From: Candidatus Methanomethylicia archaeon
GTDB lineage: Archaea > Thermoproteota > Methanomethylicia > Culexarchaeales > Culexarchaeaceae
Direction: 5' to 3'
Length of the DNA: 64,000 nt
Assembly (NCBI GenBank): GCA_038727515.1
Contig: JAVYVS010000001.1
Coordinates: forward strand, 614,961 to 678,960
Shown in pieces: positions 2,314-13,026 of this stretch (within the stretch, counting starts at the first letter, position 1; each line of letters opens with the position of its first letter). Below the pieces are notes generated by a model that saw nothing but the letters and a program-made list of their open reading frames with translations, made no database searches and was not told the origin of the DNA. The translations under genes were made by a program, and so were the position numbers.

Positions 2314-4785
2314 TCAATGTAGAATGGCATTGAATAGAAATTTAAATGTTGCTGGAGTTTGACATCTACTATAAACTGGAAATCCAAATAAAACGATCTT
2401 TCCATAACCCTTAGGAATACAAGCTACGGCAGCAGCATCATAAAGATATTTTTCACCTAAAATCCAACCACTTAAAAGTGGATTCGTACTCGGATATTTA
2501 GCTACCACATACTCTTCTGGACATTTAAAAGCTGGACTATTTATAAACATGATTGCCGAATCAATATCCATACCAAAACCTATTGGATGCTTATTATTCA
2601 CTATGACCCTCAAAATGGACCCTGGAATATAAAATTCCGTTGGTTTTAGATTCTCAAGTACATTTACAACTGGAATCCACATACGTTTAATGGGAAGCTC
2701 ACAGCTCTCATCAATTGTTATAAGTTTACCACCATTCAAAACAAATTCATTTAAATTTTCAACACCCACATCACCAATACCACCAGCATATTCTGGAGGA
2801 ACCTCTTCAACACTCCTACCATTAACAATATTATTGAGATTTTGACCAGCAATTATTATAACATCAAATCTAGAATTTAAATTGCCATTTCTAATTTCAT
2901 TATTCCCAATACTCATATATGGTATATTAAACATTTCGAATAGAAACCTAGCCCAACCTTCATCAGCATTTGGAATCCAATTCCTATATAAACCGATTCT
3001 AGGAATTTTGAGACTTATCATATTTACATTTGTTAAATTATCACAAGCATATAGTACCACTGGAAGACCTTTTAGGAAGCTGGGAAGTTTCTCCTTCAAT
3101 TTATCATCATTTTCAAATACAAAAGCTCCTGGTGGAAGTTTAACATTAGAAATACTAATTTCATTGGGAATTCTATAAACTTTAAAATTGTTTAATAGAA
3201 GATTAATGGCAAGTTTATATGAAGCATTAGACTCTGGTGAAGCCAGTAGATATTTTGCATTTCTATCGCCAATTATAATTCCATCTGGATATTTAATCTC
3301 CTTTAACTCAACGCTTTTAACATTAAATTTACCATTAACTGTATAAACTTTAACATTCATCATTAATGGAAGTGTCCAAGCAGTTAAATCATATGGTCTT
3401 TTAGGCGGTTGTTCTGGGGATTCTCTTAAATCTGGGTATACTTGTACTTCCAGTAATGTTTTTGCATATCTACCATAAGGTTGAGCAAAATATATTATGA
3501 AGGATCCCTTTGGAAATTCTATTCCATCAGCAATGAAAGATTCTTCAGCCACGTTGATTTTAACCAATCCACGATGTAAAATATCTAAAAGCCAGTACAA
3601 ATTATATAAATCCTTTTGATTTGGAGGGATTATAAAGGCGAATGGCCCCCCTTCAGGTTTTAAAGCACGTTTAAATATTTCTATGGTATTTGCAATCCAA
3701 AATCTCCTATACTTAGCAGCATTTCTAAGACATGCAATAACAGCGGCAAGTTCATAATCAATAATGTCTCTTAACCTCCAAATACCACCACGCCATGGAT
3801 ATGGATTATTCCATCTTTGTTTAGATGGATCTAAACCAATAACAGGTCTTAAATCTTGAGGCTTTATTTCAATGGGAGTAGCAATTTTAACGCTTGCAGC
3901 TTCAGAAAGTATTCTTATACCACCATGATAATGCTGATAAGCTCTAGCAGGCGTCCAAGCATCGTATATAGCATAGCAAGCTACACCCTTAAATCCTCTA
4001 CCAATAAGTTCATTAGCCATTGAAGAACCCATAAATACTATTTCTTGTTGAAGTATGGGATCTACATTAGGATCTATTGGGTCAAGATATGGTGGAAGCC
4101 AAAGTCTAGGTCCATATGGACCCATCTGATGTAAATCATATACTATTTGTGGATGCCAACGATTATGAACTTTTTCAACGACAAGTCTAGTTTCAATTAG
4201 ATTCAACATAAACCAATCTCTATTATTATCATGACCAGCATATTTATGGTAAAGCCATGGTGGAGCTGAACCTTCATATTTAGTACCTAAAGTCTTATTA
4301 TACCAATTTACAACCATTACATGACCATCTGGATTAAGTGATGGAATTAAGAGTAATATTACATTATCGAGGATTTCTTTAAATTCATCAGAATCTTCTG
4401 TTGCAAGTTTATAGAGAAGTTCTATACTCATCTGTGATGCAGCAATCTCGGTGGAATGAATACTACAAGTAACAAGTACAATTGTTTTACCTTCATCTAT
4501 AAGTTTTGAAATTTCATTTTCACTAAGACCTTCAGGATTATGAAGCTTTTCCTGTATACTCCTATAATAATCCAATTTCTTCAAATTTTCAGATGAAGAA
4601 ATTATAGCTAGAATCATATCATTGCCTTCAGTGGTTTTACCCAAGAATTCCACTATAACTCTATCTGAGCGTTCTCCAACAATTTTAAAATACTCTAAAA
4701 TTTGATTCCAGTTGGCAAGTTTCCTATCTTCTCCAACTTTAAAACCAAGAAATTCTTCAGGGGATGGAATACCCTTTAAACCCAT
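2314..4785 (-). CDS. Large M14 zinc carboxypeptidase family protein
   Basis: SIHSTE (HxxE), NPDG, HDNNRD, DLHQMG; C-terminal DEGW.R..FE region; true start probably ATG at 4785 (MGLKGIPSPEEFLG) because the ORF-track extension runs into the tRNA. Confidence 0.9.
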   Translation of the reverse strand: MGLKGIPSPEEFLGFKVGEDRKLANWNQILEYFKIVGERSDRVIVEFLGKTTEGNDMILAIISSSENLKKLDYYRSIQEKLHNPEGLSENEISKLIDEGKTIVLVTCSIHSTEIAASQMSIELLYKLATEDSDEFKEILDNVILLLIPSLNPDGHVMVVNWYNKTLGTKYEGSAPPWLYHKYAGHDNNRDWFMLNLIETRLVVEKVHNRWHPQIVYDLHQMGPYGPRLWLPPYLDPIDPNVDPILQQEIVFMGSSMANELIGRGFKGVACYAIYDAWTPARAYQHYHGGIRILSEAASVKIATPIEIKPQDLRPVIGLDPSKQRWNNPYPWRGGIWRLRDIIDYELAAVIACLRNAAKYRRFWIANTIEIFKRALKPEGGPFAFIIPPNQKDLYNLYWLLDILHRGLVKINVAEESFIADGIEFPKGSFIIYFAQPYGRYAKTLLEVQVYPDLRESPEQPPKRPYDLTAWTLPLMMNVKVYTVNGKFNVKSVELKEIKYPDGIIIGDRNAKYLLASPESNASYKLAINLLLNNFKVYRIPNEISISNVKLPPGAFVFENDDKLKEKLPSFLKGLPVVLYACDNLTNVNMISLKIPRIGLYRNWIPNADEGWARFLFEMFNIPYMSIGNNEIRNGNLNSRFDVIIIAGQNLNNIVNGRSVEEVPPEYAGGIGDVGVENLNEFVLNGGKLITIDESCELPIKRMWIPVVNVLENLKPTEFYIPGSILRVIVNNKHPIGFGMDIDSAIMFINSPAFKCPEEYVVAKYPSTNPLLSGWILGEKYLYDAAAVACIPKGYGKIVLFGFPVYSRCQTPATFKFLFNAILH

Positions 4786-4821
4786 GAAATTAACTATGTA
4801 TAGAACATTGTTTAAATTTAT

Positions 4822-4897
4822 TGGTAGCCGGGGGGAGATTCGAACTCCCGTCGACGGGGCCAAAGCCCGCCATGCTTGGCCGCTACACCACCCGGCT
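4822..4897 (-). tRNA. tRNA-Gln (anticodon TTG), intronless, encoded CCA
   Basis: Reverse complement AGCCGGG TG GTGTAGCGGCCAAGCAT G GCGGG CTTTGGC CCCGT CGAC GGGAG TTCGAAT CTCCC CCCGGCT A CCA; full cloverleaf; A1-U72 pair typical of archaeal tRNA-Gln. Confidence 0.98.
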
Positions 4898-6069: not shown

Positions 6070-7261
6070 CTTTCTTCATCTTACTAACAGCAATTCTAGT
6101 TGTAACCTTCAAATCTTTAACATCCATCTTCCTAACTTCTAAGAGACCTTTATTTATACATTCTTCAAAAAGCTTCTCACCAAAATCGCTTCTAATTATA
6201 ACAGTAGTCCAACCCTTAGGGGAATCTAAACCACCTAAAGATATATCTGCTAATCTAGCTGTGAAATCGCTACAATAATCACAAGATTTACGTCCATAAT
6301 CTTCTATCTCTTTTAAACTAATGGATAATAGGATTTCATCTCCAGATTTAACTGTAAGATTCCCCTCAGAAATATCAGTTTTAGTTATCTTATCTAAATT
6401 AATCCCCTTACTAACAAGGAAGTTTTTAAATAATGATGAGTAATAGAATGTTTTTGAACAGAATAATCCTAACGCAAATTTAACTGGTAAACCATATTTT
6501 AAAGCTCCATATTCATGGTATTGCATCTTCCTTAAACCAGTAATTTGACATCCTACACCGACAAATCCTACACTTTTAGTTTCAAATTCATCTATAGCGG
6601 CAGTTAAAGCTTTCAGATTTGGGCTTGCAGTATACTTAGATCCAGCGCATTCCAATACATCCCTCCTATTAAATGCGACTTTCGGTTTAGGTTTAAATGG
6701 TTCTAAAGAATCTAAACCAGATAAAATAGCGCAATCAATAATTCCAGACTCCAATGCATATATAATTATGGTGGATGCTACACCACCATCTTGAGCATAC
6801 TTCAAAATCTCATTGTCAGTAGATCTAGCTGCATAAACACTCTTCAAATAACCTAGAGATTCATGTTTAAAACTAGATGTAAAAATCTTTGAAGAAACAC
6901 TTTGAACATCAAATGTTGTGTGTGGACATTGAGCATAACAAAAACCACAACCAATACATCTACCAACAATACTAGGTTTTTCATCTTTTTCATCAATAGC
7001 TTTAACGGGACATACACCAATACATGCACCACAAAAAGAACATCTATCAGCTCTAATAACTTCACTAAATAAATGACCCCATATCTTAACTTTAAGTCCC
7101 AGAGACCCATCAGGCTTTATCCTAACGCCCAAAATCATCCACCACAAAAATAAGATATCATAAAAACAATTAATAAGGGTTATCATAGATTCAATGGAAA
7201 AATAAATATATTAGATTTGAGAGACTTTCACGTTATCTAGATAGTTAAAAGTGGATGTAAA

Positions 7262-9040
7262 ATGATAGAAGACTTCCAAGTGAAAGTTGCAAAATACGTA
7301 ATGGAATGGGGAGAATGGATAGAGAAATGTGAATTGCTATTACTACTTGATACTGAAAAAGATAAAATTAAGATTTATATGGATAAATTGTTAAGCCTTC
7401 AAAATGATGATGGAGGATTTCCACGTAATTGGATTAAAGGATACTCCTCAGGAATAATCGAAACTGCAAAAGTTATAGAATTGGCTTCTAAAATAGGTTT
7501 AAAAAATGATGAAAGAATAGAAAGAGCAATAAAATTCTTAATTAAAAATCAGCTTGAGAATGGAGCGTGGATGGAAGAATCATTAGAATATGAAGATAAT
7601 TCAAATGATGTAATAGTTTCAGCATATGCATTAAAAGCTATAGCGACAGCTGGTATTAAGGGGGAAGTTGTAGATAAATGTGTAAGATACTTATTGGAAA
7701 GTCAAAGAGATGATGGATTATGGCCAAAAACAAAGGCAGGAATAAATCCAGATTTGGAAGCTTCTGGAAGAGTTTTAATAGCATTGCATGAAACAAAAAA
7801 TAAGATTGCTACAAAAGCCATTAAAAATGGATTTGAAAGTTTAATGGAAGTATTTATTGAAAAATCAACGAAAGAATGGGATACACTCTCAGAAGATATA
7901 CTACCAATAATTGAAGCAATATCAATTATACAACCAAAGAAAAATACAGCTGCCAGGAAAATAATAGATAGCTATATAAAAGGTGAAAAATGGGAATTTC
8001 AAGATAGAAGAAGTGAAAATACAAACAACCTATTAAACTTAATTAGGGTAATGGCTTTAACAAACATCATAAATAAAGATAAAGTTAAAGAGGAAATAAA
8101 CAAATTATTGGAATTAAAATTAAATCTCAAGAGGATTATAGAGAAATTTGAAAATGAAGCCAAAGAGATATTACTATCAAAATTTGAAAATATAGGGATT
8201 AAGAGGAATGATCCTCAGAAGAAGATATTGCTTGGATTATTCATATACTCACTATTAGAACAATTTTTCTGGGCTGCAGAATATGAACCGCAAACAGAAT
8301 TTATTGGTGTAATAGATAGAGTTGGAACACTAGATAAAATTGAGAACTACACAGACTATGAAAAGATTAGAAAAGCATTATTTAGGAGTAAAGCTCTTAC
8401 TGGAGTTGCAAAAAAGAAGAAGGAGGATGCTGCAAAAAGTATAACGTTATTTGCTAGATTCCTAATACAAAATAATGAAATAAATGTATTTGAAGAATTC
8501 GTCAAAAAACTAATTGAATTTACATTATTTGAAATAGCGCCAACACTTTCAGGGGCAACAACAGCAAGAAAGCTTGGTCTACTACTAAGAAACTACACTA
8601 AAAATGAAATTGAAATGTACAAATTATTTGAATCATTAAAATTATCACTGGAATGCTTCCCATCAATAGGATCTAAGATATCAACATTATATCCATACTA
8701 CACTATATGGATATATAACATATGGAATGAAGTGAGAAAATACATAGAAACTCCAATAGACTGGAATACAGTAAAAACATATATAAGTATAGGCTTAAGC
8801 AATTTAACATTAAAAGATCTTAGGAAGGATCCGAGAAGAGCATCTAAAGCAATAAATAAGCTATCTGAAGAACTATTTCCAGAGGATAAAGCAAAAATAT
8901 CATTACTGTGGATAGCTGGAAGAGAATGGTGTACAAAACCATATAAATGCTATGGGCATATGGGCAGAAAATGCTGGTTCTATGATATTTGTATGAGGAG
9001 GATGAAAGATGAAGAAAGAAGAAAAAAGAATATGGGATAA
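7262..9040 (+). CDS. Fusion: prenyltransferase/squalene-cyclase-like alpha-alpha repeat domain plus HhH-GPD (endonuclease III-like) Fe-S domain
   Basis: QW-type repeats LQNDDGGF, NQLENGAW, SQRDDGLW; C-terminal FPSIGSKIS (HhH), TPIDWNT, LFPED, LWIAGREWC-x5-C-x7-C-x5-C. Confidence 0.75.
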   Translation: MIEDFQVKVAKYVMEWGEWIEKCELLLLLDTEKDKIKIYMDKLLSLQNDDGGFPRNWIKGYSSGIIETAKVIELASKIGLKNDERIERAIKFLIKNQLENGAWMEESLEYEDNSNDVIVSAYALKAIATAGIKGEVVDKCVRYLLESQRDDGLWPKTKAGINPDLEASGRVLIALHETKNKIATKAIKNGFESLMEVFIEKSTKEWDTLSEDILPIIEAISIIQPKKNTAARKIIDSYIKGEKWEFQDRRSENTNNLLNLIRVMALTNIINKDKVKEEINKLLELKLNLKRIIEKFENEAKEILLSKFENIGIKRNDPQKKILLGLFIYSLLEQFFWAAEYEPQTEFIGVIDRVGTLDKIENYTDYEKIRKALFRSKALTGVAKKKKEDAAKSITLFARFLIQNNEINVFEEFVKKLIEFTLFEIAPTLSGATTARKLGLLLRNYTKNEIEMYKLFESLKLSLECFPSIGSKISTLYPYYTIWIYNIWNEVRKYIETPIDWNTVKTYISIGLSNLTLKDLRKDPRRASKAINKLSEELFPEDKAKISLLWIAGREWCTKPYKCYGHMGRKCWFYDICMRRMKDEERRKKNMG

Positions 9041-9959
9041 GTATCTAACAAAATTTTCTGCAAAAATCGAGGGGGGACTCTTAAAAGATCTAAGAAATGA
9101 AATGGATAAGAGAAGTGAAATTGTAAAAACACATTACAAAAGATTGCTAGATAATTTGAACATTACAACAGAAGATACTAGGAATATGCTTATGGATATA
9201 TTCGTTTACTCAGTATTTGATAAATATAATTGGAAACTAAGAAGTAAAGGTGAAACTCCATCAAAAGAATATAAGAGATTCAAAAGTGTAGTAACGAAAT
9301 TTGATTATTATCTTGATGAAGATCTATTATACTATGCCATAAAAGATGAATGCAATGAACTTAGCAATATAAATAAAACTGATGTAGAAAGAATAATAAA
9401 ATCAATGTCATACCTAGCTCAAGGATTAGCTAACATAGAAAACTTCGAATTTATAAATTTTGCAGAATCTCTAAGGAGACATATAATGTTCAATGTTTCA
9501 AAGGATCTACCAGAAAAAATATACAAAATAAAATCTTACTATTATGGTTTGCTTACCATGACTAAGATCAAAGACAATTTAACAGCTATAGATTCATTGA
9601 AAACATCAATATTATGTCTCCCCATAGGAGAGCAACAAATAACAAACATGTACCTATACCTACTATTAATAGTTTTGAATGTATGGAATGTAAGTGGAAA
9701 AACATATGTATACTCACCATTAGACAATGGAGTCTCAGAAGTCCTATTAAGCCTTGGATTAACAGATAAAAGAATAGAAGACATGGAATATGAAAATACG
9801 GGATACAAAGCATACAAAATAATAAGTGAAATGTTATTTCCAGAGGAACCATCAAAAATGATGGTTACTAGGGCCGTAGCAGAAAGATGGTGTTACCAAA
9901 AGAAGATTAAAATATGTGATGAATGTTGGTTTAACAATGTATGCCCAAAGGAATATTAA
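9009..9959 (+). CDS. HhH-GPD/Fe-S-like protein, tandem paralogue of the C-terminal half of 7262-9040
   Basis: Collinear similarity (FVYSVFDKYNW, SLKTSILCLP, LNVWN, SPLD, LFPEE) and C-x7-C-x2-C-x5-C. Confidence 0.7.
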   Translation: MKKEEKRIWDKYLTKFSAKIEGGLLKDLRNEMDKRSEIVKTHYKRLLDNLNITTEDTRNMLMDIFVYSVFDKYNWKLRSKGETPSKEYKRFKSVVTKFDYYLDEDLLYYAIKDECNELSNINKTDVERIIKSMSYLAQGLANIENFEFINFAESLRRHIMFNVSKDLPEKIYKIKSYYYGLLTMTKIKDNLTAIDSLKTSILCLPIGEQQITNMYLYLLLIVLNVWNVSGKTYVYSPLDNGVSEVLLSLGLTDKRIEDMEYENTGYKAYKIISEMLFPEEPSKMMVTRAVAERWCYQKKIKICDECWFNNVCPKEY

Positions 9960-12666: not shown

Positions 12667-13026
12667 ATGAGTGGGAAAAAGGAGAAAATACCCTTTAGGG
12701 TTAAAATGGCTGATGGAAGTATAGAAACAGTATATGCATATTCAGAGAAGCAAGCATTATTCCTAGCATCAAAAAGTGGGAAGAAGGCGTTGGAAGTTGT
12801 AGGAATACTTATGAAGACTGAAGAAAAACCTATTGAAAAAGAAAGAGTTAATGAAAAAAAGATTGAATTATTTGAAAAACTTGAAGAAGCTTTAAAGAAT
12901 AAAAGATACATAGAGGCTATAGAATATAAAATACAAATTCAAAAAATGATATCTAATGGAGAAATAAATTGGAATAATGAATTAGAGAAGAAGTATGGAT
13001 TATTTGGATTATGGTGTAATAAATGA
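12667..13026 (+). CDS. Hypothetical protein
   Basis: 119-aa ORF with typical plus-strand codon usage; overlaps the next gene (ATGA). Confidence 0.7.
   Translation: MSGKKEKIPFRVKMADGSIETVYAYSEKQALFLASKSGKKALEVVGILMKTEEKPIEKERVNEKKIELFEKLEEALKNKRYIEAIEYKIQIQKMISNGEINWNNELEKKYGLFGLWCNK

Follow-up and report, generated by a model that had tools for sequence, protein, structure and literature searches.

A candidate heterodimer of endonuclease III-like proteins, one of them fused to an alpha/alpha toroid, in an archaeal order

The HhH-GPD glycosylases known to us are single catalytic chains. Endonuclease III (Nth; PF00730 with PF10576), a [4Fe-4S] glycosylase/AP lyase, is a single-chain enzyme of this kind, and the archaeal 8-oxoguanine glycosylase AGOG (PF09171) has the HhH fold and is not known to carry an Fe-S tail. 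An Asp-Lys dyad marks bifunctional HhH glycosylases (PMC13490550). The same dyad (K199/D231) is found in the queuine-salvage hydrolase Qng1 (DUF2419), a metal-independent monomer with a free nucleotide as its substrate (PMC9881137). Deinococcus EndoIII3 also contains the Asp-Lys pair, with no detected EndoIII activity (PMC10523315). The locus described here combines an Nth-like domain with an alpha/alpha toroid and with a second, overlapping gene. No description of such a fusion or of an archaeal HhH-GPD heterodimer was found in the literature, with most subscription journals outside our coverage, and the Culexarchaeia paper mentions neither glycosylases nor squalene.

The window is the whole analysed stretch of 64,000 nucleotides. 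It contains a fusion gene (A) and a gene that encodes a stand-alone paralogue of the A C-terminal half (B) (Table 1). An earlier note on this DNA did not recognise the architecture of the fusion from any characterised protein, which agrees with the literature search, and left out gene B. A chance fusion or an assembly artefact is ruled out, since A is one open frame across many independent genomes; the fusion is not peculiar to one assembly. Structure comparison leads to squalene-hopene cyclase for the toroid (AlphaFold2 model of A: pLDDT 87.3, pTM 0.83), and profile comparison leads to HhH-GPD proteins for the C-terminal half, as the note had proposed. The public name of A, terpene cyclase/mutase family protein, describes the toroid domain only, and B is named hypothetical; both labels are misleading. 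The functional unit is most likely the A and B pair rather than the fusion alone.

Table 1. Features of genes A and B, in coordinates of the window
Feature	Position	Strand	Description	Basis
Gene A	7262..9040	+	Fusion of 592 aa: alpha/alpha toroid followed by a divergent HhH-GPD domain	ORF, AlphaFold2
A residues 1-270	7262..8071	+	Whole single alpha/alpha toroid with three QW repeats	Structure match to 1gsz
A residues 272-310	8075..8191	+	Long helix linking the toroid to the HhH-GPD domain	Model secondary structure
A residues 422-447	8525..8602	+	Helices of the predicted B contact (Gly439, Leu442 near-invariant)	
A residues 466-474	8657..8683	+	HhH hairpin with Lys472 (codon 8675-8677) at the Nth catalytic lysine position	
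A Asp500	8759..8761	+	HhH-GPD catalytic aspartate position	Profile alignment, conservation
A Cys557/563/571/577	8930..8992	+	Putative [4Fe-4S] ligands, spacing non-canonical	Sequence
GAGGAGG	8995..9001	+	Shine-Dalgarno-like motif within the end of A, 7 nt upstream of the B ATG	Sequence
Gene B	9009..9959	+	316-aa stand-alone paralogue of the A C-half; overlaps A by 32 nt; Gln at the Lys position, Asp239, four Cys	
B residues 160-186	9486..9566	+	Predicted A contact centred on Gly180	Complex model
B Cys295/303/306/312	9891..9944	+	Putative [4Fe-4S] ligands, spacing x7-x2-x5	Invariant in all B-type sequences

The C-terminal half of A is related to Nth and is distinct from it. Neither this half alone nor B has a Pfam or NCBIfam match above cut-off, and neither reaches the curated cut-off of PF00730 or of an Nth model; PF10576 appears in 3/21 members only, at E 0.022, and identity to Nth is 9-14%. 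At the profile level, the relationship is clear. The four top PDB matches of the family profile are endonuclease III structures (E 6.5e-4 to 7.5e-4), and the A C-half matches archaeal Nth with a profile-profile probability of 98.8% (E 5.6e-16), so the C-terminal region does have an HhH-GPD fold. The endonuclease III-like motifs that the earlier note had read from the sequence are present: the profile alignment places Lys472 of the hairpin on the Nth lysine and Asp500, in a PID (PxD) motif, on the Nth aspartate, and a G-R-x-x-C lead-in precedes the four C-terminal cysteines. The cysteine motif is as the note gave it, C557-x5-C563-x7-C571-x5-C577, and the four cysteines are conserved in both proteins, whereas the canonical C-x6-C-x2-C-x5-C spacing is absent from both. 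A differs from Nth further in its Lys-Asp spacing (28 residues rather than 18), in an extra helix (432-446) with no Nth counterpart in the profile alignment that is a predicted dimer interface, in its N-terminal toroid and in having a partner paralogue. The A C-half is basic (net +15 vs an Nth-like median of +11), which fits a nucleic-acid substrate. In one A orthologue (L055:8011-9756 (-), P0031) the second cysteine is missing and a histidine lies nearby, a possible three-Cys/His variant of the putative cluster.

B shares 25% identity with the A C-half over 274 aa (E 6e-22), and its AlphaFold2 model (pLDDT 93.6, pTM 0.92) superimposes on the atlas cluster model of A with a TM of 0.81. In a structure search of 48,161 chains, the top 22 matches of B were all HhH-fold enzymes, led by EndoIII-3, MutY, EndoIII, AGOG and Qng1 (Z 12.3-13.8); the best was 8a5g (Z 13.8, rmsd 3.7, 224 aligned), and the Nth-type structures 2abk and 8a5g span Z 12.9-13.8. 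Foldseek alone found no match for B at E<0.001 (best 0.044, EndoIII-3), and the profile-profile probability to archaeal Nth is 99.6%. B resembles MutY/MIG in fold (Z 13.7 to 1rrq), in a retained Asp without the Lys, and in an Asn at the conserved HhH Asn position. In contrast to these enzymes, it has no MutY C-terminal domain, its HhH hairpin is degenerate, glycines included, and MutY/MIG-type family scores are weak (best E 0.0019, 4/29 members). The GAGGAGG motif before B suggests, from its sequence and position, that translation of the two genes may be coupled.

Structure prediction suggests that A and B form a pseudo-symmetric heterodimer. The full-length complex model scores 0.82 against 0.00 for the best of 3 controls, a mark reached by 58/80 solved complexes and 2/110 mismatched pairs, which is a rough guide here as our own alignments were used; close paralogues can also pass the test. 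The runs share at least 93% of their contacts, with a partner pLDDT of at least 88. In the predicted interface, A 422-447 faces B 160-186, and the equivalent extra helices A 432-446 and B 169-184 cross at Gly439/Gly180. Conservation offers a check that is independent of how the interface was chosen: Gly180 is kept in 20/20 A-partnered B proteins vs 0/9 single-copy homologues, a contrast that amounts to one evolutionary event in one clade whose tree position is unsure (sister to A, 90/81). The interface helix is deleted in 2/9 of the single-copy homologues, and position 439 of A is Gly in 18/21 sequences and Ala in the remainder. A mirror-tree comparison was discarded as evidence of co-evolution (rho 0.49 overall but -0.16 among distant pairs).

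The pair has a narrow distribution. A search with the C-half among 1.84 billion representatives returned 23 proteins, plus fragments; the proteins are either complete fusions (517-612 aa) or forms without the toroid (about 270-330 aa). Among named organisms, Ca. Culexarchaeum and Ca. Culexmicrobium have the nearest relatives of A. Matches with E below 1e-35, taken as strong, were seen in 17 of the 401 genomes of the phylum, and the weak matches that were inspected (E 1e-4 to 1e-12) are ordinary Nth-like genes; these genome searches covered Thermoproteota, and other taxa were covered by the protein-level searches. A and B are adjacent in 11/12 genomes of the order (Culexarchaeum/Culexmicrobium), the twelfth being 45% complete, and no strong match was found in the searched genomes of the other orders of the class. 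The pair recurs in a few other lineages. The two genes overlap or directly adjoin each other at a further eight loci examined in several lineages (-59 to +4 nt between them), at three (L059, L069, L072) they lie about 2-4 kb apart, and in one genome they are on different contigs. In another family the B-like gene is present once, and neither A nor its toroid was found in the three genomes searched (two of them 96-97% complete).

Phylogeny places A and B outside the Nth sequences used (99/96), with A as one clade (98/96). This position, together with the lack of any family model over its cut-off, makes A and B, as judged from sequence, a separate family within the HhH-GPD superfamily and not members of Nth. 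The A and B trees have the same 7-genome subclade and its inner pairs in common, which is consistent with joint inheritance. Besides two canonical Nth genes, the genome that carries the window encodes other HhH-GPD paralogues, so the pair would add to base excision repair rather than stand in for it.

Other HhH-GPD-like genes of this genome (G000) also escape annotation. One protein of about 285 aa (L094:4789-5640 (-), equal to G000:C1:80788-81660) has an intact Lys-bearing hairpin, the Asp and a four-Cys tail, and no Pfam match above cut-off. Two divergent ORFs (L095:3547-4209 (+) and L096:3125-4039 (-)) are likewise without a Pfam match; the former has the Cys tail and no clear Lys/Asp motifs. 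Elsewhere in the family, one A orthologue (L086:6171-7997 (+)) has been called late (499 aa), and homology continues about 110 codons further upstream in the same frame.

We tentatively favour a heterodimeric base-excision enzyme that is additional to the two ordinary Nth genes and has a non-catalytic toroid; it is the leading account of the locus at less than even confidence. A and B would both derive from an endonuclease III-like gene that duplicated once, long ago, and the two proteins would pair as a pseudo-symmetric heterodimer through their crossing extra helices. In this organism the Lys472-Asp500 dyad would lie in A, whose HhH/Fe-S domain is basic and would bind DNA. A would flip a base out, release it by cleaving the N-glycosidic bond, and then nick the strand via a Schiff base, in the manner of bifunctional HhH glycosylases. 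B, with an Asp-only pocket, would be an obligate partner that provides a second binding site or a monofunctional pocket, and the toroid, fixed rigidly to A and without catalysis of its own, may serve as a scaffold or bind a ligand. Given the two canonical Nth genes, the ordinary oxidised pyrimidine is probably not the substrate. A glycosylase for an unusual lesion, one of the functions offered in the earlier note, may be right. If the heterodimer is real, one of the best-known repair folds would gain a new architecture: two paralogous subunits joined by a dimerisation helix specific to the family, with a toroid fused to one of them. Nearly all genomes of one archaeal order retain the pair beside the ordinary repair set, so the pair probably does something that those enzymes do not.

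The precedents of Qng1 and EndoIII3 make the dyad a sign of plausible activity and not a proof of it. The earlier note held that the lysine and the aspartate are both kept. This is correct for the present protein and for its subclade, A1, and does not extend to the whole family, which makes catalysis less secure than the note implied. In A1, Lys472 is present in 12/13 sequences and Asp500, Gly470 and Gln334 in 13/13 each, down to 28-35% identity, although 9/13 of these sequences come from one order and the lysine count represents about three independent lineages. In subclade A2, the counts fall to 2/8 for Lys472, 6/8 for Asp500, 3/8 for Gly470 and 4/8 for Gln334, and these proteins evolve fast (branches 1.4-2.0). 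Only Cys and Pro residues are invariant family-wide, the four cysteines being the most constant feature, and in the single-copy clade all sequences (9/9) retain 4/4 Cys with the Asp and Lys gone. Such a pattern would fit a pseudo-glycosylase, a heterodimer with two Fe-S clusters that binds nucleic acid or acts as a scaffold, in which the lysine is a retained DNA-binding residue; EndoIII3 would be its precedent (PMC10523315). We regard this as the foremost alternative, if a somewhat unlikely one. A pure scaffold would have no need of the full dyad that A1 retains, nor of the polar set Asp71, Gln209, Asn213, Asp239 and Tyr266 that partnered B keeps at or near cleft-equivalent positions.

A further possibility is that the pair acts on free nucleotides or RNA, and not on duplex DNA, as an N-glycoside hydrolase or base-exchange enzyme. 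The likeness to Qng1 bears on this. In the structure search with the B model, Qng1 (Z 12.3, rmsd 3.9, 233 aligned) is tied among the top matches, and it and AGOG (Z 12.7) score no more than about 1 Z less than the leading one. Both enzymes resemble A in having extra segments close to the active site and a wide Lys-Asp spacing, and Qng1 has the same dyad. The degenerate hairpin of B points the same way, as do the co-oriented neighbours in three lineages, which are a phosphoribosyltransferase, a SurE and HAD hydrolase pair, and a C-N hydrolase. However, each lineage has different neighbours, and the window shares none of them. The likeness to Qng1 is one of fold, with no DUF2419 Pfam match in 21 members and no sequence-level match to Qng1 or AGOG, neither of which has a toroid; and A and B, unlike the monomeric, metal-independent Qng1, keep an Nth-type tail of four conserved cysteines and are a predicted heterodimer. 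A nucleotide or RNA substrate, handled as by Qng1 or by the pair of active and inactive tRNA-guanine transglycosylase subunits, seems unlikely.

Across the order, the pair always lies between TFIIB/frhB and phosphoglycerate mutase; outside it the neighbours vary by lineage. No DNA-repair gene recurs in the neighbourhoods, which counts against base excision. A gene for a RimK-type ATP-grasp ligase is divergent and directly upstream of A throughout subclade A2 (L053, L055-L057, L059, L069, L071, L072, L074). It was rejected as a functional clue, as it is one inherited arrangement and the G000 copy is on another contig. At all three loci of the single-copy clade (L058, L060, L076), the B-like gene is convergent to the cdv operon (Vps4/CdvC, CdvA).

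The complex model contains two HhH-GPD clefts in one pseudo-symmetric arrangement. Both might work at once, each on one strand of a single site, as in cross-link unhooking or tandem lesions, which we consider improbable. The pocket residues of B are conserved only where A is present; in the single-copy clade several of them are lost, and Asp239 is Thr in 9/9. In addition, the degenerate A2 proteins pair with B proteins that carry Arg at the Lys position and retain Asp/Glu, in 7/7 cases. Against this stands B of this genome, which has Gln in place of the lysine. In its fullest form, which we hold at the same low level, two working pockets and two Fe-S clusters would serve a lesion or modification beyond the reach of single-chain glycosylases. 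A cross-link attacked on both its strands would be one example, and a hydrophobic adduct gripped by the toroid another; which subunit does the catalysis would then change from lineage to lineage. A restriction-type glycosylase in defence is a less likely variant, and the suggestion of the earlier note that A is a defence protein is not borne out: PADLOC models gave 0 matches for five family members, a PHROG scan of the A C-half and B gave nothing above cut-off, no relative was found in viral contigs, the synteny is fixed among housekeeping genes, and no methyltransferase is linked to the pair in the order.

The toroid is best read as non-catalytic, judging by its motifs and its rate of change. 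The three QW-type repeats reported earlier are found (residues 46-53, 96-103 and 147-154); the domain is there as claimed, and the structure alignment extends it beyond the roughly 200 residues first assigned, to residue about 270. It is a complete alpha/alpha toroid like those of squalene-hopene cyclases, MstE, prenyltransferase beta subunits and TED domains. The closest structure is squalene-hopene cyclase 1gsz (Z 19.6, rmsd 3.6, 252 aligned), followed by single-domain cyclases, TED domains and prenyltransferase beta subunits (Z 19.6-16.6). Pfam SQHop_cyclase_C passes its cut-off at residues 33-157 (31.9 vs 26.1 bits), and cyclase-specific models score the toroid far under their curated cut-offs; feature searches of the ESM Atlas returned generic toroid proteins and unnamed clusters only. 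Unlike these families, A lacks the protonating DxDD (0/21 A-type N-domains, which agrees with the earlier note), the thioester CxEQ (0/21) and a conserved Zn-binding DxC (sporadic, 4/21). Conservation is limited to the QW-repeat residues and Lys22, the sole near-invariant polar residue (K/R in 20/20). The toroid is the faster-changing of the two domains, with 13-20% identity between distant lineages against 21-33% for the HhH domain; it is shortened in lineage L067, and a single toroid residue (61) touches B in the complex model. A catalytic toroid, performing prenyl transfer or terpene cyclisation on a base flipped out by the HhH domain, is very improbable, even though the complete barrel is closest to class II terpene cyclases and Trp57 aligns with a tryptophan of the cyclase cavity. 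No isoprenoid genes recur nearby save a thiolase/HMG-CoA synthase pair in one locus. The base replacement raised in the earlier note, if done by a catalytic toroid, gains no support, as no catalytic motif is conserved.

Expression was sought in public data. One metatranscriptome assembly has short contigs, from a closely related strain, that cover stretches of A and the last part of B at a depth of 2-4, compared with about 17-26 for the TFIIB/frhB contigs; they may be DNA and are not counted as expression. The source organism was absent from the raw-read runs searched. An AT-rich TATA-like run at 7196-7211 is indistinguishable from chance at 30% GC.

Two observations concern other parts of the window. 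A tRNA-Gln(TTG) at 4822-4897 (-) overlaps the longest-ORF start of an M14 peptidase gene (2314-4863, -), which implies that the true start of that gene is further downstream. A 119-aa protein without a family match is encoded at 12667-13026 (+), upstream of a second M14 peptidase, and six or more loci of the order have it in the same position.
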